This document shows positions 1,491 through 18,645 of a stretch of DNA of 64,000 nucleotides, piece after piece. Each line of letters opens with the position of its first letter. The first letter of the stretch is position 1. The translations under genes were made by a program, and so were the position numbers. This stretch comes from an uncultured delta proteobacterium (GTDB taxonomy: Bacteria > Desulfobacterota > WTBG01 > CAIYCZ01 > CAIRTM01): positions 160,001 to 224,000 of the forward strand of contig CAWDSQ010000014.1 in the NCBI GenBank assembly GCA_963804955.1, written 5' to 3'. The notes below the pieces were generated by a model. The model had not been told where the DNA came from, searched no databases, and worked only from the letters and a program-made list of their open reading frames with translations.

Positions 1491-4400
1491 TCAGGTACAT
1501 TTCAGGCAATTGATGCCCGCAAGCGGAATGCTCCGGTCAACAGGGCCGCAGAGAAAGCTGTGCAGCAGAACCTGCTGCTGCCCCAGGCAGAACTGTTCCC
1601 GCAGCCCCTCAAAACGCATGGCTCCTATGGGGCATACGCCCATGCCGGATTCGGCCTGATGGTCCATGAGCACCTGGCCGATACAGCCCGCCTCGATCAT
1701 GGCAAGCTGGGGCCCCTGGCTGCCAAAAAGCGGCTCCAGCCTGCTTAGATCAGCTATGCAGAAAATGCTGAATCCTGCTTCGGCGAAATACGAGCGGTTG
1801 CGGGGGAAATGAGCCTGGCGCAGCTCAGCTGCGCCAGCAGCGCTTATCCGGCGCAGCGTGTGGACCGCCTGATCATACAGATAGATGACCTTCCGGCACC
1901 TGTTCGACCGCCCCGGGCTGAATATGTACATACACCTGTACGGCATAAGCGCCTGAGGCCGACTCGTACAGGGCCGCATACCCGCCGTCCTGAGGCACAA
2001 GCCGCAGCAGGGCCATGAATTTTGAAAAAGCGGCAAATGCTGCGGGCCGTCGGGCAAAGCTTCGCTGCGTTGAGCGCAGCATATACTGATTATGCAGAAA
2101 GCCGGCCGGCTGCAGCGATAGCGTTTTCTGCGGCCGGAGAAATTTCCGGAGATGCGGCTGCGAGAGATGCAGCTCTTCATGCTGCTGCGGCGTTAAAACA
2201 TTGAGGCAGTCAAGAGCGCCGACAGCGACAGCCCGCAGGCAGGCCCAGTCCGGGGCAGGCCCTGTAAAATGATCGGTAAGATTGCCCTGAAAAATATCGG
2301 CAGGGCTGCCGGCGCTTTCGGCACTGCTGTCCGGCAGGCCGCCGGCCAGGCAGGCCATGAAAAGATGGGTTTCCTCAAGCTCAAAAAGATGCCGCACGCT
2401 GCCGAAATCCGTCCCGGCAAGCGGGCACAGCCCCAGTCCTGCAGCGTCCTGCCTGCTCATGAGCAGCTGCTGCATATAGCCTGCATCAAGCAGAGCGAGA
2501 GCCGGGCTCAGGCAGTCATAAACCGGTCGAAGCGCCGCCAGCTGCGCAATGAAAAATATGCAGAATCCGGCTTTTTCAAATACCGGCCGGTTGGCAGGAT
2601 GCATAATCTCCTGCGGTATGGCACCTTCGCCAACTGCCATGAGCTGATGCGTTGCGGGATGATAGTAATAAATTCCCGCCGGCACAGCCTCGACGCGGCC
2701 CGCTTTAACATAGACATAGGTCTGCACGGCATTGAGCCCGCCGGCAGAGGGGTAAAGATATTTCGGCTCGCCGCTCACGGTTTCCTGCTTGAGAAGCCCC
2801 AGCAGCCGGCTCAGGTTGCGCAGCGGCACAGGGTCTGCTGCAAAGCTGCGGCAGCAGGCACGGCTTGAGTATTCCTGCGGGGCAAAGGATACCGGCTCAA
2901 GGGCAATGACTGCCGCTCCGGACGGAGCTGCAGTCGGCCGGGTCGAACTATGTCCGGAAGCCGGCAGCACAGCTTCCACGGTCAAGGGGTTTACCGCGGG
3001 CAGCATGTCTTGCAGATACTGCGCCAGACTGCGCAGGGTCGTATGATCCAAAAAAACCTCAACCGGCACATCAATGCCGTGCTGCTCATGCAGCAGCTCG
3101 GCTATTTCGATAAGGTTAAGCGAGGTGACGCCCAGATCGAAAAAGTCCGCGTCCGGCGCTATTGAGGCGATGCGGAGCACTGATGTAAAAGCAGAGGCAA
3201 GAAAGTTCTGCTCCGCCGGTACTGATGCGACGGCAGTCTGAGCCTGCAGCACAGCAGCTGCTGAGCGTGGGGGGGCGCCGGGGGAGGAGGAGTCCCGGCG
3301 CCCACAGTTATCCGGCTTTCGGCGAATATCTGCCGCACCCGCGCTGTAACCTCGTCAAGCATGGCACTGTCGGTAAACGCCTCGACAGGCAGCACAATCT
3401 GTATTTTTCTGAGCATATCCTGAACAGCCGCAGCTTTGGCCGCCGGCGCGGCGCAACAGGCTACCGCAGCCTGTTGCGGGACGCAGGGCTCCTGAACCGG
3501 CAGCTGCCCGGCAGGGGGTGCGACCGTGGAGACGGGCAGCTGCACCCCTATAGCTGCTGCAAGGGCGGCAATGCTGGAATGGTCCAGAAAGGTTTCAACC
3601 GTCACATCCAGGCCGTGCTCTTCGTGCAGCCGCTCGGCAATCTGTATGAGGTTGAGCGACGTGACACCCAGATCAAAGAAATCGACTGTCGGCGCGATCA
3701 CGGTCACACCGAGAACTTCCCTGAAATACGCGCTCAGGACGGCAATCAGATCAACCTGCGAAGCATGCTGCGCTTCCGGCGGGGCCTGCTCCTGCGCCGC
3801 TGCCGCCTCGTTTATGGGCCAGGGCAGCTTCTTGCGGTCAAACTTGCCGTTTGCGGTAACCGGCAGATATTCAAGCGAGCACAAATATATTCGGCACCAT
3901 ATAGTCCGGCAGAAAGCGGCCGGCAAAGCTGCGCAAGTCTTTTGACGGCGGCAGTGGAGTGTCGGCCGCTGTCAAATACGCGACCAGCTTCTGATCGCCG
4001 GCAGCGCCCTGCTGCACCGCTACCACAGCCTCTTTTATTGCGTCGTGGCGCCGCAGCACCTGCTCGATTTCGCCGAGCTCGATGCGGTAGCCCCGCACCT
4101 TGACCTGAAAATCGCTGCGGCCGAGAAACTCCATGGTTCCGTCGGCAAAAAACCGCGCAAGATCGCCCGTGCGGTACATGCGTTTGTCAGGGCCCTTTTG
4201 GAAAGGGTCGGCGACAAAGCTGCGGCCGGTCAGCTCCGGCTCATTCAAATAGCCCATGCTCAGGCACTCTCCTGCAATATAGAGATTGCCGGTAACCCCC
4301 GGCGGGCAGACCTGCAAGTGCTCATCCAGAATATAGTAGCGGCTGTTCTGTATGGGCCTTCCGTAGGGAATGCTGCGCCACTGCGGCTCGACGCGGTTGA

Positions 4401-7050
4401 CGGGAAAGTAATTGGACCACACCGTTGCCTCGGTCGCTCCGCCAAGGCTCATCACCTGTGCTGCAGGAAAAATCTCCCGTAGATCATCGGGCAGGCTTAC
4501 CGGAATCCAGTCGCCGCTTAAAAATATCTGCCGCAGCTTAGTATTGGCAACAGGCCTCGGCTGCGCCTTCAGCGCCGGCACCAGCAGCTGCAGGGCTGCG
4601 GGCGCTGAATCCCAGAAAGTAATCTCCTGCGAGCAGAGGGCGCGGGCCAGCCGGGAGGCATCCCTGCGGAGGGCATCGCTTGCAATATAAATCCTGCCGC
4701 CGCAGCCAAGCATGCCGAAAATATCAAAAACCGACAGATCAAACCCGAGCGATGTGATAAACAGCACGCTGTCGTCAGGGCCGAATCCGCAGCTGCGGCA
4801 GCACCATTCAAACAGATTGGCAAACGGCTTATGCGCCACCATGACCCCTTTGGGAGCGCCCGTGCTGCCGGAAGTATAAATAACATAGGCAAGATCATCG
4901 GGGCGGTTCACGCGCGGCGGATTGCCGGTTTTTTGCGCGGCAATGACGCTGCTGGCAGCACCGTCGATACTGACAGTCTTCACGCCGGCATGCAGGCTGA
5001 GCCGGGCATGCCTCTCCTGCGACACGATCACCTTGACCCCTGCGCTGCGCACAATCGCCTGAATACGCTCTATCGGGTAGGAGGGCTCAAGAGGCACATA
5101 GGCGCCGCCGGCTTTAAGAATCGCAAGCAGTGCGGCAATCATATCATGAGAGCGGTCAAGACAAATGCCAACCAGAGAGCCGCTGCCGACGCCCTGCTGC
5201 CTGAGATGCCAGGCCAGAGCATTTGCGCGCCTGTTGAGCTCGCCATAAGAAAGGCTCGTGTCTTCATAAACAATTGCCGTACTTTGGGGCCGAACCTCCG
5301 CCTGGCGCTCAAACAGCTCATGCATGCAGACATCCCCGGCAAAGGGGGCAGCGGTCGCATTCCACGCTTCTATAATCCTGCGCTTTTCCGCTTCCGAGGC
5401 AAGCGGCAGCCGGTCAATCGGCTGATGCATGCTGCCTGCGGCGGCATGCAAAAAAACTGTCAGCTGATTTTTAAGGCTTTCGCCATAGGCCGCATCAACC
5501 ATAGCGGTATTAATGCGCAGCCGGCAGGAGCCGTCATCGGCAATCAGCAGCTCAAGGGCTGCACCGCCGGCAGGCGGCAGGCTTGAAAAATCCCGCAGAT
5601 GCCGGACCCGCACAGGCATGCTCCGGCCCGCCTGCTCCCGCAAATCGGGCTGGCGGGCGATCAGGTCGCGGGGAAAGGTGCCCGAGCGTTCAATGGCTGA
5701 GAGTTTTTCAACAGCAGCCCGGCAGCATTCCTCAAGCGGCCTGCGGGCGTCAACCGTCAGGCGCAGGGGTACACAGTCGGCAAAAAAACCTTCCAGGCCT
5801 TTAATGCTTTCCGTAAGCTTGGCCTGCCCGAAGCCCACATGAATCTCGGTTGCTCCCGAATGCCTGGCAAGAAAGGCGAAAAAGAAGGCGGCCATAAGCT
5901 GCCAGGGCTTTGCCGCGGGCACAAGCAGCAAAGCCGCCCGCAGCAGCTCCGGCTGCAGCTGCAAAGAAAAAAGCTCCTCCCCCGTGGGCTCGGCGCCCCG
6001 GCCATGCAGGCGCATGTCAGGCAGCGTCAGCGGCTGCAGGCCTCGAAGCTGTTCATGCCAGAACGGTTCATGACGGCAGGTAAAGTTATACAGCTCTGTC
6101 AGGCTATCGGCAAGCCCCGCATCGGGCTCGGTAAACCGGTAGCCGGGCCTGATGCCGCAGTCACGCTCCAGCTGCACGGCATCACAGGCGCAGCCTTCGA
6201 TTGTCGCAAGGCCGGAAAGGCGCATGTCGTGGCTGGCCGTTGCAACCGTGATGCCGTCCGCATCTGCCGCCAGCACTGTGCCGGGCGCAGCAGGTGAACT
6301 GGTGGCAAGCGCACTCAGCTTCTTTACAATGAAAAAATTGCCCCGCGCACAGATCTTCGGCACCCCGAGGGCGTTCGGGTAGGGGCCGAAATCAAGGCTG
6401 CGGACAAAAGCGTCAATTTCCTCTGCGGTGCGGTTCCAGGGAATCATGCAGCCGCGCACAGGCCGCCGGTAGCGGGCGAAATATGTGCGCTGGGAGAGAT
6501 TTTGCGGCATTTCGGCTGCGCCGCCCGCTGCCAGCTCATCGACCAGCTCCCCGAACGCTTCAAGGGCTTTCTGATAGCAGCGCATATTCAAGCTCAGCGC
6601 TGTATCTGCTGGCGACACGCTGAGCGTCTTCTGCTTGAGCACGCCTCCGGCATCTATTTTCGGAGCCATCACATGCCAGGTTATGCCATGGGTCTGCTCG
6701 CGGTTCATGATGGCCCAGGAGGTGGCATGTATGCCGCCATAGCGCGGCAGGGGCGCGTCGTGAAAATTGATGGCCATGCGGCGCGGAAGCGCCAGAACTT
6801 CGGGGGGCAGCACGGCATTGTTGACGATGCTGAACAGGTAGTCGCAGGGTCTGGCGCGCATAAAACCGTTTAAAGCCCCGGTAGGCTCATCCCAGGGTAT
6901 GCACCTGCTCTCTGCCCAGGCCCGTATGTCGGGGTTGGGGGATAGTATGCCGAGAATGCTATGCCCCCGCTCAAGCAGCTTTTCGCAGCACTGCAGGGTA
7001 AGGGTTGTTTCTCCTATCACATAGCAGCTGAAAGTACTTTTTGGGGTCAT
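1491..7050 (-). CDS. NRPS-like protein: formyltransferase - partial condensation-like segment - adenylation (Cys-type) - PCP - PCP - oxidase - oxidase; split into 4 ORFs by frameshifts near 3880, 3250 and 1885
   Basis: F domain INFHDAPLPRYGG...HGITWH...IDAG. A-domain motifs YTSGSTGAPKGV, FDLSVFD, LSGDWIP, SLGGATEATVWS, YRTGDL, QVKVRGYRIELGEIE, with A10 LPVTANGKFDR in the next frame. Two DFFDLGVTSL carrier motifs. Two SagB/nitroreductase-type Ox domains (KYLYPSAGGL; ALYESASGAY). Confidence 0.85.
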
Positions 7051-7068
7051 TGCATACTCATACAGAGG

Positions 7069-8064
7069 TCAGTGAATGTCAGCAGGCCCGAGACCTATAC
7101 AATCAAGGGCTCGTGCAATATCGTTCCGGGTTATCGGTGTTTCTATAATTTCAAGAGCGCGCTGCCGTGTCATTTCGCCGCGGCGCACCAGCATGCTTAT
7201 TTCCGCCTCATGCTGTGAATAGCCGAACCACTCCAGCGCGAGCTTCTGGCACACGAAATTAAACAGACAGTTTGTCGAGCCTGCGGGCCAGCTGATCTCG
7301 GGCAGGGCATATCCCATATCATGGGTGATGGTCGCAAGTATGTCCGACTCTTCATAGTCCAGATAGTGAAACGGCGACAGGAGCGTCAAAGAGCCGAAGC
7401 GGCGGTGAAAATACAGGGTCAGGCTGGCAAACATCTCGGCGACGAGAGAAAATTCGGGCTTGTCTTTGACCGCCTCCAGCAATGCCGCATCAGAGGCGCG
7501 ATATATCCAGAACAGCTCCGTGCCCTTTAAAAATTCCTGCCCCTTGGTATGGCCGCTGATGAGCAGCTTTATGCCATGCTGCAGCGCAAACTGACGGATA
7601 TAATAGTCGATCAGAGCATTGCAAATGCGGCAGAAATACACCCTGCTGCCCGTTTTCAACAAATGCCGGAACAGATCCTTAATAAGGCGCGGCTTGAACG
7701 TCAGCAGATCAACACCAAGGCTGTCTGTTGCGTTTTTAACATTGCGGTACATGGCCTCAACGCAGAATCCGTTGTCGATAAAAACGGCAAGGGGCTTCAG
7801 GCCGAGCTGCTTCACAGCGATATGCAGCGACATGGTGCTGTCCTTGCCGCCGGACAGGGCGACAAGGCAATCATACGGCCCCGTGCTCGCGCCGCGCAGC
7901 GCATCGACTTTTTCCAAAAGCTCGGGCAGGCCTGCTGCCGCTGCCGGCGATTGCCCGGCCCCTGCATCGCGATGTTTTGCGCACAAATTGCACAGACCGC
8001 TTGCATCAAGCTCTATATGGCCCTCAACTTCCGGCATGATGCAGTGCGTGCATCTGTTGGGCAT
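7069..8064 (-). CDS. N-type ATP pyrophosphatase (PP-loop) protein, OzmP / N-acetyl-sugar amidotransferase-like
   Basis: N-terminal CTHC...CNLC, YDCLVALSGGKDS PP-loop, FIDNGF, FCRIC, STNC. Ends 18 bp upstream of the NRPS on the same strand. Confidence 0.85.
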   Translation of the reverse strand: MPNRCTHCIMPEVEGHIELDASGLCNLCAKHRDAGAGQSPAAAAGLPELLEKVDALRGASTGPYDCLVALSGGKDSTMSLHIAVKQLGLKPLAVFIDNGFCVEAMYRNVKNATDSLGVDLLTFKPRLIKDLFRHLLKTGSRVYFCRICNALIDYYIRQFALQHGIKLLISGHTKGQEFLKGTELFWIYRASDAALLEAVKDKPEFSLVAEMFASLTLYFHRRFGSLTLLSPFHYLDYEESDILATITHDMGYALPEISWPAGSTNCLFNFVCQKLALEWFGYSQHEAEISMLVRRGEMTRQRALEIIETPITRNDIARALDCIGLGPADIH

Positions 8065-12077: not shown

Positions 12078-15000
12078 CTACTCTCCGGGAAAACCTTCCG
12101 GACAGGTATCCGCGGATTTCTTCAAAGTTACGTTGCCTTTAACCTCCTGCTCTTTAACTATGAGCTGGCCCTCCCATTGATCCGTGGTGAGATTGTACTT
12201 CATGTCCGTCATGGTGAGATGGGCCGTTATCGCGCCAAGGGTCACCAGAATGGTCCCGTTCACCGAGCTTACCTCATCCACGGTAATATTGCTTGCGGCC
12301 GTAGCATCAGGGTCACTGGCAGCATCGGCGGCATCAGCAATTTTGCCGTTCATATGCTCATTGGTAGCCTCGATATCAATGCGCGCGGTACCGGTGACGA
12401 CAGTGCCCGACTGGTCAGCGCAAACCTTGAGAGCTGCGGCGATAAAGCCGAAATCGATAACGCCTTCATAATACCCGTCAAATTCGGCTTCGCCGAAGGT
12501 CGGGCAGTTTGCCGCATTTTTGTGATAGTAGTCTTCAACTTGCGCATAATGCCGCACGGCCATGCTGAAGCAGTACAGCGCCCTGGCAAGCCTGCCGCTG
12601 TCCCCGGCCTGCTTGCCCTTTTCAAAAGCGCTGTCGCCCAGTGACAGATCGCGGTTAATGCGTTTCTGATACTCATCGCAAATGCTATCGGCCATGACTG
12701 CTGCTTCAGCCTGCGCGACCTGCACTTCCCACAGTGCCGACTGATAGAGCATCTCTTCGGATGCTGCCAGCGCCCGTGTTGCAGCGCCTCTGCCGGCCTT
12801 GGCAATGGCCAGGGCCGAAAGCCTCAGCTGCCCGTCAAGATCGGTCTGCTCAAGAGCCTTTTTCATCATTCTTTTAGCTCTTCTATAGTGCCGCTTTTGC
12901 GCGCCGCTTGACGAGGCGATGGCCGAGGTGAGACCGGTGTCCATAGTCGGGGCGCATTTTTCATACGACAGGAGCCCGCGCTGGGTCGTAAGGGCAAGGG
13001 AAACGCCGGCAATTTCAAGAGTGCCTGCCGTCATCGTGCCCTTCAGGCCGCTGCCCGACTTTTTAAGATTGATTTCGCCGGTGCCGCCGGCATACACAAA
13101 CGTGCCCTTCACAAAACTTTCATTGTCGGCCGTCGAGGCGGTGACCGTGCCGTCAAGAACCGTAGCGCCATAGACGGTAAGCGTGCCGGTCACATTGTCA
13201 TGGGCCTGATAGAGATCGGCAACAATGCCGATGGTGCTGTTATCGGCTGCATCCAGACCGGTGCCGTACCAGATGCCGCTTGCCTGAGTTGCCGGCTTCT
13301 TCGGCACGGCAACTTTAAACGTGTATAAACCGCCGACACCGCTTGAAACATAGGCAATACCCTGGTCCGCTGCATAGGTGATTCTCAGGGGATCGATCAC
13401 GCTGAAGGACTCGTTGTCAAACTCCTGCGGACTGTCGGGCACCGCAATATCAAACAGGCGCACGGCCCCGGCCGTATCGGCCACGAGCAGATACCCGTCA
13501 AAGGCCTCGACAGCTCTCATCATGCCGGTTTTATGGCGCACGGTGATGGGATCAATGAAAGATGCATTGTCATAGGTTGGCAGATACAGGGGGTCGAAAT
13601 GTACCATATGCAGCACGTCGCTTGCGGGCAGATACATCCAGGTATCCCAGACCGCTATGTCAAGGACATTGCCCAGATCATAGCCCAGGGTATAGCTGGC
13701 GGCGATCTTCTGGGGAAAGCCGGGGTCTTGTATGTCAAGGGCCGTAAACCCTTTAAGCCCGTCTGCCACCATACTATAGCTTTCGCCCCATACAACCGGG
13801 GCATAGCAGATGCCGGCGGTGTTATAGCTGCCGAGCAGCTCAGGGTTGGCGGTATCAGAAACATCCACGATCGCCAGGCCTGCGGTCTGGCAGGCGACAA
13901 AGGCAAGATTCCCCTGCACCTGAACCGTGTAGGGCTGACCGGAGAGGGCTACTGACCCGAGAATGACCGGCGCCAGCGGGTCTGCGACATCCACGATTTC
14001 CAGCAGCCCGCCTTCCTCCCCTTCATGATTGGTCTGGGCGACATAGACGGTTGAGCCGGAAACGGCAAGGCCGTTGGCATAGCCCGACAGGGTCTTCTGC
14101 ACGACCTGCAGGGGCTGCAGCGGATTAGTCATGTCAAGAATCGCAAGGCCTTTGGTTCCCACGGCGGCATAGGCAAAATCGCCCGCGCCCTTGCAGTCGA
14201 CAACCCGGCCCATGGAGAGGATTTCGCCGACCTGCTGTATGGCATTAGAGCGGGTGTCAAAAATCCGTATGCCGTAATTTGAATTGGCAAGCGCCACATA
14301 GTTGCCGATTGTCGAAATGCCCAGGCTGTGCTGTCCGAGCAGAAAAGCCTGTACCTGTATCGGGTTTGCAGGATCGGTCACATCAATCTTGTAAAAATCC
14401 GCGAACTCGGTGCACAGATAGACATACCCGTCCTTTGCCTGCACAACCCCGATGACACCCTGATAATTATTATTCAGCGGCTCGCCGACAAGGGTAATAT
14501 TGTCAAAATCGGCTATGTTAAGGACTGCAAGGCCGGTGCCGCCGGCTGCCACATAGAGATAATCGCCGTCACGCGCTACGCCATAAGAATTGGCCCAGTG
14601 ATTGTGATAGAATCGAAATAATAAGCCACCGGCTCCAGCGTTTTGGTGGTGTTATCGATGCCGTCGAAAATGTACAAGCCGTCAGCCTCGCAGCTGAAAA
14701 AAAGCGTATTGCCGTCGATATAGGCGTCATAGGCATGGTGTTCGGGGTTCACAAAATCCGTAAATGACTGCACGATATTCGGGGATGAGGGGGTGGTCAC
14801 ATCAAGAACAAATAAGCCTGAATAATCGGCAACATACACATAGTTGCCATTGACCGCCACACCGAAGGTCTGGCCGATGGCGTCGGCCTTGTCGAAGTTC
14901 GTTACCGAAATGATCGCCGGCTTAGCCGGGTCGGCAACATTAACCGCCGCAAGGCCGCCGTAGGAGCAGGAGATATAGAGGATATCACCGCTTTGAGCTA

Positions 15001-15268
15001 TGCGGCGTGCTATGCCCGGAAGGGCAAGCGTGCCGATCTCAACAGGCGCGCTCATAGTGGAAATATCAGAAACAAAAAGTCTGCTGCCTGTGAGACTGAA
15101 CAGCAGAGGGTTTCTGTACTGAGAAGTTCCATCCTCGTCTATCAAGCCATACCGGGACGAGCCCCCAAGGCTATACTGAAAATCAACGGTCTGGGCAAAT
15201 GCCCCTGCCGTCATGCTGACTGCAAAAAGCAGAGCGAAGATGGTATAGTAAATGTTTTTTCTTTGCAT
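12078..15268 (-). CDS. Large secreted LVIVD-repeat beta-propeller protein (frameshift near 14590)
   Basis: Signal peptide and many repeats of the form YxYVA-x4-GL-x-IVDVSDPxxP across ORFs 14576-15268 and 12078-14552. Confidence 0.85.
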
Positions 15269-15517
15269 AACATGCCCTCCTTGTGAACTGTTTTCTCTGA
15301 CTGTTTCTGTATGCTCAGGCTGAAGGGGAGCTCAAATCGACATACGATACGGCAGCACCCCACCGGCGCACACAGCCCTGTAAAAAAAGTTCAAAGCCCT
15401 CTGCATCTGCCGCGGCAGAAAGCTTTAATCACAGAAAAAATGTTTAGCTGAAGCGTCATGCTTCCGGCTCAACCGGACACTTTTTCCAATGGGCAATAAT
15501 TCGATAAATATTTTAAA

Positions 15518-15533
15518 TGCTTAAATCGTGCCA
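15518..15533 (-). promoter_or_regulatory. Sigma-54 -24/-12 promoter for the LVIVD gene
   Basis: Minus strand TGGCACG-ATTT-AAGCA versus consensus TGGCACG-N4-TTGCW. Confidence 0.7.
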
Positions 15534-15637
15534 TGATGTCCCGCACTGGAATGGATAAAAAAACGTCTAATATTAAATAGTTAGAACCTCAGAACTGGAT
15601 ACTTCAGCCGCAACAACCCTCTTGCTACTAAACAATT

Positions 15638-15672
15638 TGTGCAGATATGCACAGAACGTGCAAATATGCACA
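15638..15672. promoter_or_regulatory. Tandem palindromic enhancer (UAS) sites
   Basis: TGTGCA-GATA-TGCACA (15638-15653) and CGTGCA-AATA-TGCACA (15657-15672), about 105 bp upstream of the sigma-54 site. Confidence 0.7.
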
Positions 15673-15686
15673 GTGCACCTCCACCT

Positions 15687-15730
15687 AAAAAAACGGCAGG
15701 CTTCAGAATAACCCCTGAAGCCTGTCTTTT
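15687..15730 (-). terminator. Intrinsic terminator after DUF1329 copy 1
   Basis: GGCAGGCTTCAG...CTGAAGCCTGTC hairpin flanked by A and T tracts. Confidence 0.7.
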
Positions 15731-15755
15731 GTAGAAACGTTAAAAAAACGTCTGC

Positions 15756-17012
15756 TTAATAACCGTGCTTCTGCAGGTAATCAAGGGTGAACATAGTCTC
15801 CGGAAGATCTGCGCCGAACTTCAGTTCGGTGGTGCCGACCGTAGCAGTGAATGCGCTGAATATCGACGGTCTGGGTGCCGTTGAAATGAGGAACGACAAC
15901 TGCCATTATGCCCCTTGCCGACAAAGCCCAGCTGATCAATCCACTTCCAGAGCTTGCCCGAGCGGTCATAGCGGTCGGAGTACAGCATCTGCCAGGTTTC
16001 GGGATCAAGATACCAGACCATTTTGCTGTACAGAAAGTTGGGGTCTTTGCTGGTGGCCTCGACAACATGCATTTTCACGCGCTCGCGCTGCGTTCCGTCA
16101 AACAGGCAGTCGCCCGGCGTATGCACGAGCTTTTTGGTGTCGGTGTGGCGGCCCATGAGCATGTCTTTCTGGCCGAGATACTTATAGGTATTGACCTGCA
16201 CCGGGCCGTCCCATCCCATATTATCGAAGGCGCAGTAGTCGGCGCCGCCCTGGGCGTCCTGACGCTCCGAGGTCGAGCGGCGGCGTACGCGGCGGATGGA
16301 AGGCATCCAGAACCAGGAGTCATAGGCCTTGAGGGTATCCTTGTAGTGGATTTCCATGATGCGCATATTGCGGGTTTCCGGCGGCTGCAGCTGCAGCATG
16401 CTGAATGCACGCCATATCTGCTTGGGATTTTTCGTCAAACTCGGGCACCGGCGGCGTATCGGTGCGGCCGGAAAAAAAGCACAGGCTGTTTTTGATTTCG
16501 GAATTCATGTCATACTTCAGGCGACCGTCGACGATCCAGGCATTATCATGGTTCTTATAGGCGTCGCCGAATGCTGCGGGTGCGGAAATTATGGGCCATT
16601 TCTGTGGCATCCTTGGTGTCGGGAAACGGCACGCCGGAGACATAGCCCAAGAATCTCGCCGCTTGGGTCCGAGCTTTGCTCTGACCATAATACTTTTTGG
16701 TCATTTCAATATTGCCCGGCGTGGGGGAACCGGTTTGATAGGGAACGATTTCAAACCAGCTGTCGCCCCATTTGCCGGCATCCTTCATGGTGTTGTAAAA
16801 GCTTTCCGGCAGAAAGTCCTTCACCTCGTCAACATTGGCGCTGGTAATTTTCTTGCCGACCCACTTGGCTTCCCAGGCCTGAAGTTTTTTCAGCTCATCG
16901 CCCTGATAGCAGGCACAGGGTACTGCAGCTCTTTGGCCGAAGCTGTTGATGCAGCCATCAGCGCACAGGCGACTGCTCCCAGAACACACAGTGCGGAAAT
17001 TTTAAGTTTCAT
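15756..17012 (-). CDS. DUF1329 family periplasmic protein (LolA-like), copy 1, several frameshifts
   Basis: Fragments WEAKWVGKKITSANVD, GVPFP, WFWMPSIRRVRR, YSKMVWYLDPETW, YDRSGKLWK are collinear with the intact paralog at 54422-55687. Confidence 0.85.
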
Positions 17013-17028
17013 ATGCGTTCCTCCGTTA

Positions 17029-18596
17029 TTAGAATTCATAGGTGTATTCAAAGGTCCACGTATCTTTATGATTTACATTTGCCGGGTTATCTTTAAGCCC
17101 GAAATAATTAAGATACCGCACCAGAAAAGTGTGGCCGAAGTTGGGCTTGAAGCCGATAGCCGGAGCATAGTAGCCGCCGCCCTGATTGGTGTACCAGGCG
17201 CCGTAAAAACCCGGCAGGATGCGGCCGTTCCACAGTTCATAGCTCAGCTCCTGGGTGACAACCGTCCAGGACTTGTGATTTTTGCCGTACGTGACCCAGG
17301 GAAAATAAAAATCATTGCGGTGCTTCTCGGGCATGAACTCCATGAACAGCTGCGTTGTGGAGGACAGGTACTTGTTGCGCGCCCAGGGCGTGATATAGGG
17401 CAGAAAAATCTTGGTGGCCCATGAGGCGCAGAACGCATAGCGGTTCTGCTTGGTTATGCGCGACTTCAGACCGCCAAGCGCCAGCGCTTCAAGGCCCGGC
17501 TTGTTATGCTCCCAAATGGCCTCCAGCCGTGCAATATTGCCCGACATGGCAAGGCTGGTGCCCGGTATGATCGGGATGGTGATATCGACGGGCTTGTTCA
17601 CCGTAAAGCCCACGGTGTCCTGCCAGGGATACTTGTAGATATCCTTTCAGGGGATACAGGTTCAAACGCCGGGTCAGACCGGTGTTGCCCAGCGCCGGCC
17701 CCAATCCCTGTGCTAAGAGCACTGTTGGGACCCAGGACGCCATCGTCAACGCGATGGTGAAAGTACGACACGGTCCAGTCATAGCCTGCCAGAAATCCGC
17801 GGATGCGGCCGCCGAACTCCATTTTGTGCCAGCTGTCATCAGGTGCGTCGCGGTAATAGGCCTCAAACATTTCATTCGGATTAGCCAGAGCTGTTGTACG
17901 CTCTCGGATGCAGAAGGTGATAGCCCACGGGCCAGTTCACGGTGGGCTCGAAATCCGGAATCAGGAGCAGTTCATAGGTCATGTCCATGGGCTGATCGGG
18001 CGGGGTAAAAAAGAAACGGCCCATCCAGAGGCCCTGCTTGAGTTCGGCAAAATCCGGATAAGCGGGGTTCAAATTGCCGCGCAGGTCAACCGGGTTGATA
18101 TTATCAACCATGCGCTCAAAGCCCGTCTCGCCCCATGATCACGATCTGCTTGCCCAAACGCACCTGAAACATGGGCCCGTTCAATTCCGTATACAGCTCG
18201 CGGCAAATGTCCTTGAACTGGTTATACGTACGCAGCTCATCTATGGATTTGGATGAATCCTGGGCGGCATTTCTGAGCATACGCTTGTACTCGCCGTCGA
18301 CATCGTGGGCTGCATCATAGAATTCCTTCCAAACGCCGTAAAAATTAACCTGGTATTCAGGCCCCTCATAGGCATGCCACATGGTTTCGAGCTTCAGCGT
18401 GCTGCGGGCATTGAATATTTCATAATCGTAGTCCTCATAATGCTGCGTATCATTGGCGCGCATGAGCAGCTGCTCTGAAATCTTGCCGTGAATGACGACC
18501 TTGCCGTCAAACAAATCAATTGCGCTGGCCCTGCCCGGCAGCAGGCACAGGCCGGCGGCAAAACCCAGATAGCACCAAAACAAAATTTCTTTTCAT
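17029..18596 (-). CDS. DUF1302 family outer-membrane beta-barrel protein, copy 1, several frameshifts
   Basis: Signal peptide, RELYTE, VRLGKQIV, DNINPVDLR, ELKQGLWM, C-terminal FEYTYEF. Parallels 52773-54386. Confidence 0.85.
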
Positions 18597-18645
18597 ACGG
18601 TCCTCCCTTTATGATTTTTATGCTTTTCTCCCCGTTCTTCAGCTG

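Follow-up and report, generated by a model that had tools for sequence, protein, structure and literature searches.

To our knowledge, natural-product thiazoles are made either by the heterocyclization (Cy) domains of nonribosomal peptide synthetases (NRPSs) or by YcaO enzymes, and either way the ring arises from the peptide bond that adjoins a cysteine. For oxazoles, a PP-loop protein encoded in the gene runs ozmO-ozmP-ozmQ and congA-congE-congB has been proposed, although not shown, to activate a formamide oxygen for ring closure (PMC4504003, PMC5764310). CtaC, the iron-sulfur (Fe-S) thioamide synthetase of closthioamide, acts only on amides bound to a peptidyl carrier protein (PCP) and needs both ATP and its Fe-S cluster (PMC6772006), and BmdC oxidizes a PCP-bound thiazoline with a Tyr as the proposed general base (PMC8795117). 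Here we describe a locus from an uncultured delta proteobacterium in which features of all three systems are found side by side. It lies on the minus strand of a 64,000-nucleotide stretch of assembly GCA_963804955.1 (contig CAWDSQ010000014.1, positions 160,001 to 224,000; hereafter the window, numbered from its first base) and comprises a small PP-loop gene directly upstream of a single-module NRPS with the domain order F-X-A-PCP-PCP-Ox-Ox (formyltransferase, condensation-domain remnant, adenylation domain, two carrier proteins, and two oxidase domains). We consider the chances about even that this cassette combines cysteine with a formyl group on a carrier protein to give a thiazole-4-carbonyl unit unsubstituted at C-2. 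The OzmO/OzmP logic, the CtaC enzyme family, and the BmdC/EpoB oxidase are known; what sets the locus apart is the combination of F-A(Cys-like)-PCP-PCP-Ox-Ox with an Fe-S-type adenine nucleotide alpha hydrolase (AANH), without a Cy domain or polyketide synthase (PKS). We found no description in the open-access literature of a thiazole formed from N-formyl-cysteine, or of an F-A-PCP-Ox NRPS paired with an AANH protein.

The layout was established from Pfam and NCBIfam profiles, lists of open reading frames (ORFs), and motif positions in the window, and it bears out an initial annotation that had placed an SGGKDS PP-loop gene upstream of F-(partial C)-A-PCP-PCP-Ox-Ox. The two genes are separated by 18 bases, and the upstream one encodes a member of the PP-loop / adenine nucleotide alpha-hydrolase superfamily. 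The F domain carries the motifs NFHDAPLP (aa 95-102) and IDAGG (aa 132-136), to whose NFHD and IDAGG residues we assign, as an assumption, the N/H/D catalytic triad. The A domain motifs quoted in that annotation were located at 4723-4743 (FDLSVFD), 4507-4524 ((F)LSGDWIP), and 4414-4446 (SLGGATEATVWS). As in the linear gramicidin synthetase LgrA (F-A-PCP), which provides the best Protein Data Bank (PDB) matches for the A domain, an N-terminal formyltransferase is fused to the adenylation domain. The window NRPS differs from LgrA in having about 280 extra residues between F and A, the remnant of the C-lobe of a condensation domain, and also in its Cys-like code and in the absence of a downstream C domain.

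The remnant, here called X, matches the Condensation profile at positions 193-347 only (aa 326-477) with 22.4 bits against a cut-off of 30.6, and in L018 the corresponding match spans profile positions 191-455. We rejected X as a cryptic Cy domain, since the C-lobe alone is present and the motif is absent. A regular-expression scan of the first of the four pieces into which the window NRPS is split found neither DxxxxDxxS, the heterocyclization motif, nor HxxxD[G/A], a pattern that includes HHxxxDG. Among five intact orthologues, HHxxxD[G/A] is absent from all and DxxxxDxxS from four; the fifth (L023) has two chance DxxxxDxxS matches, at aa 819 and 1660, which fall in the A and Ox regions, outside any C domain. 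Profile searches of the window NRPS and its relatives revealed neither a thioesterase (TE) nor a reductase (R) domain, and no C or Cy domain of full length, in agreement with the initial annotation, and no ketosynthase (KS) was found in the NRPS or its flanks by the same means. No match to YcaO (PF02624) was obtained in the organism's own genome, which is 87% complete, with control searches positive in 5 of 14 genomes. A YcaO enzyme acting in trans was rejected on these zero genome matches.

Cysteine is the best predicted substrate of the A domain. The ten specificity positions, which occupy established places relative to the A-domain core motifs, were extracted through hidden Markov model alignment and read DLFDFSLVWK in the window. 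This is the code of the family, being present in 19 of 20 complete rows, with DLLDFSLVWK in the remaining one. The extracted columns can be regarded as valid because canonical Cys, Gly, Ser, and Thr codes were recovered by the same procedure in control modules (DLYNLSLIWK and variants in EpoB-like Cy-A-Ox modules; DILQLGLIWK, DVWHFSLVDK, and DFWNIGMVHK in others). The canonical Cys code is of the DLYNLSLIWK type, to which DLFDFSLVWK is identical at six of ten positions. Nine of ten positions are shared with DLFNFSLVWK, the code of the nearest A domains outside the family (51-55% identical over the core), which stand behind C-type domains having DxxxxDxxS and lacking HHxxxDG. The Asp that distinguishes the family code at position 278 also occurs in DLYDLSLIW and DLYDMSLVW, the codes of two modules with a Cy-type motif (P0149 and P0170). 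Code prediction thus agrees with the Cys-type signature noticed initially, the family code being one position removed from that of Cy-linked modules.

The oxidase region shows homology to azoline oxidases. For Ox2, the thiazoline oxidase BmdC is a homologue (E 1e-23), and a model of the Ox-Ox region of an orthologue (pLDDT 78.6) fits onto the tandem nitroreductase 3eo7, itself a single chain, across 475 columns, with half-length matches to BmdC (27% identity), ThcOx, and McbC. The BmdC study describes domains of this type as dimers or pseudodimers and reports that IndC carries a pseudodimer (PMC8795117). Because BmdC-type domains work in this way, the modeled Ox-Ox pair is best read as one oxidase and not two. 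The nitroreductase fold is shared with BmdC, the EpoB Ox domain, McbC, and ThcOx; the present NRPS differs from these in that two domains are fused, as a pseudodimer resembling 3eo7 and that proposed for IndC, and in that the Tyr is invariant in Ox1 only. There it belongs to a P-x-Y motif (RPVY) conserved among orthologues, which have Phe or Tyr at the equivalent position of Ox2. Tandem Ox-Ox regions are not unique to the cassette, because they also follow Ser- and Thr-coded A domains, in A(Ser)-PCP-Ox-Ox-KS hybrids and in a Thr-coded NRPS of Fulvivirga. The Ser-coded hybrids (P0135, P0136, P0138, P0139, and P0143-P0145) come from Desulfocucumis, Desulfotomaculum, Rhizobium, and other hosts and have neither a Cy nor an F domain.

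Orthologues of the PP-loop protein were identified in 10 other genomes among 40 relatives searched, at 55-94% identity, with a spread of 57-94% in the genome search and of 55-78% in the alignment. Flanking sequences were fetched for seven of these genomes, the contigs of the other three (G001, G002, and G020) ending at the PP-loop gene, and the PP-loop gene is paired with the NRPS in all seven. The linkage that the initial annotation looked for in other genomes is therefore seen in every relative examined, and since two metagenome contigs (L050 and L054) also carry the same cassette, the pairing is not due to chance. Five relatives (G004, G005, G009, G011, and G013) have the NRPS immediately after it as an unbroken ORF, 1792-1939 aa long and unchanged in domain order, and in two (G003 and G018) the NRPS is present but fragmented or cut by a contig end. 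These relatives have two or three carrier proteins (F-X-A-PCPx2-3-Ox-Ox). In 401 genomes sampled evenly across the phylum, orthologues (E<=1e-60) were found in five, all belonging to the window's own order, one of sulfate-reducer-type bacteria.

The PP-loop protein has an invariant SGGKDS motif (aa 71-76; window 7837-7854), an N-terminal CxxC...CxxC, the sequence CRIC at aa 145-148, and Cys266. Its profile matches are weak (PAPS_reduct, 26.8 bits; best NCBIfam model TIGR03573 WbuX, 146.9 bits vs. a cut-off of 203.2). An AlphaFold (AF2) model with a pLDDT of 90.8 gave 8wex as the top Foldseek match (TM 0.64), followed by TtuA, NcsA, YcfA, and LarE, and the GMP synthase fold was also matched; 8wex, an N-acetyl sugar amidotransferase of Legionella, was the top match in a PDB sequence search as well. 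WbuX/WbpG-type amidotransferases, which turn an amide into an amidine, are accordingly the closest solved fold and share the N-terminal zinc ribbon, the PP-loop, and, presumably, amide activation with the window protein. In contrast to true members, however, the window protein falls below the family cut-off, and a genuine sugar amidotransferase from Paenibacillus (351 bits to WbuX) lacks the Cys triad and branches far away as an outgroup. The grouping with lipopolysaccharide amidotransferases that would have told against the initial annotation is thus not seen for the window protein. All 24 sequences aligned have C145, C148, and C266, and in each of the 31 rows with at least 41% identity these cysteines are kept together with D75/S76. 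The enzyme probably holds a [4Fe-4S] cluster, as predicted from sequence.

Phylogenetic inference by maximum likelihood was based on 33 proteins with known gene contexts, with rows L031, L033, L034, L075, L076, L078, and L079 left out; a first tree of 40 rows that included distant homologues (25-34% identity) was set aside for its long-branch joins. The NRPS-linked PP-loop proteins form one clade (support 97/94), which, with L066 beside it, a protein linked to an aminoacyl-tRNA synthetase (aaRS)-like gene, is sister to a clade linked to F-A(Gly)-KS genes (joint support 99/95). Proteins adjoining class-II-aaRS-like, KASIII, and AMP-binding genes lie outside. Cys101 (in DNGFC, aa 97-101; window 7762-7776) is found only in the NRPS-linked clade (10 of 11 rows), other clades having Ala, Gly, Ser, Val, or Met at this position, and it is a candidate determinant of the chemistry of the clade.

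The formyl, PP-loop, and oxidase theme recurs in unfused form among six relatives of the PP-loop protein (L056, L062, L063, L066, L068, and L074; 41-46% identical), each preceded by a class-II aaRS-like gene. Most of these loci also carry KASIII (4/6), AMP-binding, and NRPS genes; a stand-alone formyltransferase is encoded in addition at L063 and L068, and at L063 there is also a nitroreductase of 342 aa, the size of BmdC. A search of plasmids brought up, in place of OzmP, PP-loop domains of this superfamily (26-28% identical) built into other NRPSs: they stand N-terminal to a condensation-domain protein on a plasmid of Streptomyces sp. NBC_01216 (L101) and inside a 2682-aa NRPS on a plasmid of Roseovarius pelagicus (L102).

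The relationship to characterized systems is provided by Pelosinus propionicus WP_090933233.1, which is 45% identical to the window PP-loop protein. Its gene lies between two trans-acyltransferase (trans-AT) genes and a gene for an F-A protein with a Gly-type code (DILQLGMIWK), beyond which is a PCP-KS-DH-KR PKS. The same protein is entered as "NRPS/PKS" in Table S5 of PMC6772006, a list of 100 CtaC homologues. By way of this relative and the conserved Cys triad, sequence comparison indirectly places the window protein in the CtaC family. The CtaC residues mutated by Dunbar et al. 2019 (D77, S78; C154, C157, C284; PMC6772006) correspond to D75/S76 and C145/C148/C266, so that the ATP motif and the three cysteines recur in the same order with similar spacing, and the two proteins have in common a carrier-protein-bound substrate, as predicted for the window protein, and a family found mostly in anaerobes beside thiotemplate genes. 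CtaC differs in exchanging an amide oxygen for sulfur on poly-beta-alanine in an NRPS-independent pathway, whereas the window protein has an F-A-PCP-Ox-Ox NRPS as its partner, probably uses the substrate's own thiol as the nucleophile, and carries the clade-specific Cys101.

Similarity to OzmO/OzmP (oxazolomycin), CongA/CongE (conglobatin), and PtxE/PtxD (phthoxazolin) lies in an F-A-PCP loading module combined with a small SGGKDS protein and no Cy domain, an arrangement also seen in the Pelosinus F-A(Gly) and trans-AT PKS cluster. The window locus departs from these systems in having the code DLFDFSLVWK in place of the Gly code DILQLGLIWK, two fused oxidase domains, and no PKS module; its ring would use a side-chain thiol and need oxidation. 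The suggestion of an OzmP-like, azole-closing enzyme is therefore upheld only in part. The sister clade is indeed linked to F-A(Gly) and PKS genes, but because the Pelosinus relative is listed among the CtaC homologues, the nearest characterized enzyme is an Fe-S thioamide synthetase and not a cyclodehydratase. The names OzmP, CongE, and CtaC do not occur among the 120 closest protein matches listed.

What we computed is the order of the genes, their domains and conservation, the placement in a family, and the Cys-like code; from these we infer the chemical steps. The A domain would load Cys onto the tandem PCPs, where the F domain would N-formylate it from N10-formyl-tetrahydrofolate. The PP-loop enzyme, of the CtaC/TtuA type and probably with a [4Fe-4S] cluster, would adenylate the formamide oxygen of the PCP-bound substrate, and attack by the Cys thiol, directly or via a transient thioformamide, would expel AMP (or H2S) and leave a thiazoline, which the Ox-Ox pseudodimer would convert with FMN to thiazole-4-carbonyl-S-PCP. 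We guess that an E2-like acyltransferase, joined in the window's genus by a PapA5-like C protein, may then pass the acyl group to some acceptor. The predicted product is fairly robust to the question of a thioformamide intermediate because, on chemical grounds, a thioformamide cyclizing with loss of H2S would give the same thiazoline; the role of the Fe-S cluster, unlike the product, depends on it. The formyl-Cys to thiazole route put forward in the initial annotation is thus compatible with the A-domain code, the tree, and the gene linkage, and conditional in its chemistry.

The putative acyltransferase genes are a regular part of the surroundings. Downstream of the NRPS, five of the six relatives with DNA available there (G003, G004, G009, G013, and G011, not G005) have a gene for a stand-alone E2-like protein of about 285 aa, as do metagenome contigs L050 and L054. 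The protein is a 2-oxoacid dehydrogenase E2 catalytic domain with the DHR motif kept, and the clusters returned for it by an ESM Atlas search were all of the generic stand-alone 2-oxoacid_dh kind. Between the NRPS and the E2-like gene, the window's genus has a gene for a C/PapA5-like protein of 445 aa (HQVCDAGG). The PP-loop and NRPS genes thus form the pair described at the outset, but the locus is not strictly one of two genes. In G003 the order is NRPS, C-like gene, E2-like gene, a stretch of about 3.4 kb encoding a sulfotransferase and another E2-like protein, and then the aconitase region, whereas on the window's contig (C14) the NRPS stop is followed directly by the aconitase gene. The acyltransferase genes of this genome (G000) are on another contig (C1:148-12278, L048), beside five glycosyltransferase genes, an AsnB-like gene, and a gene for a glycosyltransferase-methyltransferase fusion, a placement that hints at a glycan acceptor, or else at rearrangement or misassembly.

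Farther along the window, between 42000 and 64000, the GC content falls from about 0.55 to about 0.45 and every long ORF is read from the plus strand. This region, which may be an island, encodes a sigma-54 hybrid sensor-regulator, an OYE-type flavin reductase, a bilin-reductase-like protein, and a set of MMPL/RND, DUF1302, DUF1329, and BNR-repeat proteins, the DUF pair being a second copy of the one near the NRPS.

Other activities can be envisaged for the same genes. The PP-loop enzyme could be a true CtaC-type synthetase that converts the N-formyl group, or another carrier-bound amide, to a stable thioamide with cluster-held sulfide, in which case no ring would form through this enzyme and the Ox domains would do other work such as alpha,beta-dehydrogenation. 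CtaC is the sole characterized member of this neighborhood and counts the Pelosinus relative among its homologues, the invariant Fe-S triad and ATP motif are absent in the true sugar amidotransferase, and Dunbar et al. flag CtaC homologues adjoining NRPSs in deltaproteobacteria as presumed thioamide clusters and predict thioamidated nonribosomal peptides for such clusters in anaerobes (PMC6772006). A stable thioformamide would, however, have no obvious use next to a Cys-like A domain and two azoline-oxidase-type domains, N-thioformyl-Cys would be expected from its chemistry to cyclize to the same thiazoline, and the F-linked proteins are gathered in a clade separate from most others; we regard a thioamide product as unlikely, if worth keeping in view. 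Far less probable is an amidotransferase that would turn the formamide and ammonia into a formamidine, giving an N-formimidoyl amino acid. Such an activity is what the 8wex and WbuX matches would suggest, but the score is well short of the 351 bits of a true member, that member stands apart in the tree without the Cys triad, and the Ox domains would be left without a role. The chemistry might also be as proposed and the amino acid a different one (Ser, 2,3-diaminopropionate, or another small residue), leading to an oxazole-4- or imidazole-4-carbonyl unit. Asp in place of Asn at position 278 and the tandem Ox-Ox regions behind Ser-coded (DVWHFSLVDK) and Thr-coded (Fulvivirga) A domains are consistent with this, yet Ser, Thr, and Gly codes are clearly different from DLFDFSLVWK, nine of its positions match those of modules behind Cy-type domains, and Asp278 variants such as DLYDLSLIW occur in modules having both a Cy-type motif and an Ox domain (P0149 and P0170). 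Another substrate therefore seems quite improbable to us.

A further alternative concerns the state of the gene in this genome. The single ORF of about 1850 aa expected from the initial annotation is realized in the five relatives with intact genes, but in the window the NRPS occupies four frames (Table 1). Comparison by tblastn with an intact 1870-aa orthologue from the same genus was collinear over these frames (7050-3880, 3875-3291, 3282-1888, and 1991-1521) and revealed three frameshifts with no further stops or deletions. Contigs from public sequencing runs were available from relatives about 88-99% identical to the window; those at 93-94% identity have one base fewer at 1888 and one extra at 3260/3262, which restores the frame at two of the three sites, the first frameshift being outside their cover. 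No public run contained more than 0.16 of the sampled words, and none of those listed was an RNA run. Adjoining unrelated genes are likewise split: an LVIVD-repeat gene near 14.6 kb (1060 aa in a relative) into two frames, and the DUF1302 and DUF1329 genes at 15.7-18.6 kb, where a 560-aa gene occupies three frames and a 493-aa gene four pieces in three frames. Over the region as a whole (12078-18631, minus strand), the frameshift-split LVIVD-repeat, DUF1329/LolA-like, and DUF1302 genes suggest a generally indel-rich assembly, and the E2-like gene on contig C1 of the same genome has an internal TGA. Because neighboring genes are split too and related contigs restore the frame at two of three sites, the NRPS frameshifts are most likely assembly errors and not decay, and this copy is probably intact in the cell. 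Were it instead a decaying pseudogene, the frameshifts would be real, the acyltransferase genes would have moved away, and no product would be made here. Two of the three frameshifts lie outside homopolymers, the C-like and E2-like genes sit with glycosyltransferase genes on contig C1, and contig C14 passes straight from the NRPS to aconitase, unlike G003, all of which would fit decay. The unrelated neighbors are nevertheless broken in the same manner, G003, also an assembly of few contigs (50), is fragmented too, and the PP-loop gene is intact with no damage to the NRPS beyond the three shifts, so we consider a pseudogene unlikely.

Table 1. Coordinates of the PP-loop and NRPS genes, their domains, and the frameshifts in the window
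Feature	Position	Strand	Basis
PP-loop (AANH) gene, 331 aa, CtaC/TtuA-like	7069..8064	minus	ORF, profiles, and model
Single-module NRPS, F-X-A-PCP-PCP-Ox-Ox, four frames	1491..7050	minus	Pfam/NCBIfam and tblastn
NRPS piece 1	3871-7050	minus	Formyl_trans_N, Formyl_trans_C, partial Condensation, AMP-binding (aa 580-935)
NRPS piece 2	3159-3926	minus	A-domain end and PCP1
NRPS piece 3	1873-3252	minus	PCP2 and Nitroreductase/SagB (Ox1)
NRPS piece 4	1491-2180	minus	Second Nitroreductase (Ox2)
Formyltransferase (F) domain	6181..7050	minus	Formyl_trans_N 2.3e-14 (aa 80-165), Formyl_trans_C 2e-07 (aa 201-290)
X, remnant of the C-terminal half of a condensation domain, no catalytic motif	5620..6075	minus	Pfam Condensation
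Adenylation (A) domain, crosses frameshift 1	3834..5313	minus	AMP-binding / AA-adenyl-dom (450 bits)
PCP1 (FFDLGVTSL)	3549..3737	minus	Pfam PP-binding 2.1e-16
PCP2	3013..3201	minus	Pfam PP-binding 1.4e-16
Ox1, nitroreductase/SagB-type FMN domain, RPVY	2344..2865	minus	Pfam/NCBIfam and motif
Ox2, BmdC-like, crosses frameshift 3 near 1888	1521..2118	minus	Pfam, BmdC match, and tblastn
Frameshift 1, context ctcgcttgaa, not a homopolymer	3875..3880	minus	tblastn
Frameshift 2, beside runs of C	3282..3291	minus	tblastn
Frameshift 3, in Ox2	near 1888	minus	tblastn

Several observations tell against the formation of a thiazole by this cassette. CtaC, the only characterized relative, inserts sulfur without cyclizing, and the conserved Fe-S triad is no better explained by cyclodehydration than by transfer of sulfur; moreover, kinship to OzmP, CongE, and CtaC alike depends on the Pelosinus relative as a go-between. 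The A domain has Asp at position 278 where canonical Cys codes carry Asn. In the oxidase region, Ox2 of the window reads PLFG, with Phe where the PKYG of BmdC has the proposed catalytic Tyr, and the SagB model (TIGR03605) scores of Ox1 and Ox2 (68.8 and 29.9 bits) are below the cut-off of 78.4. The C-like and E2-like genes of the same genome are not beside the NRPS but at the start of contig C1, and the first frameshift is not covered by related contigs, so that this copy may truly be decaying.

The thiazole proposal can be carried further, to the point of an Fe-S PP-loop enzyme of the CtaC family re-used as a carrier-dependent cyclodehydratase. The N-formyl group would be adenylated and the ring closed by the Cys thiolate, perhaps while bound to the cluster's open iron and with participation of Cys101; the F-linked branch of the CtaC family (the Pelosinus F-A(Gly) and PKS locus, and the aaRS-like/KASIII loci with formyltransferases) would make azoles and not thioamides; and the E2-like acyltransferase would hand the thiazole-4-carbonyl group to a glycan or lipid. 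Thiazoles would then be reached, beside Cy domains and YcaO and without need of either, by a third kind of enzyme. Taken jointly, these points are a tentative suggestion that we would, on balance, doubt as a whole.

If the thiazole proposal is true, the cassette would make the ring with neither a Cy domain nor YcaO, out of one cysteine and the single carbon of a formyl group, by an enzyme of the ATP-pyrophosphatase type. It would join two separate lines, the unproven OzmP/CongE oxazole hypothesis and the proven CtaC thioamide synthetase. Requiring two proteins with Cys, ATP, and formyl-tetrahydrofolate, the system is compact and suited to a study of how the choice between sulfur insertion and ring closure is made. 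The many "CtaC-like" clusters of anaerobes, now predicted to make thioamides, would then have to be re-read.

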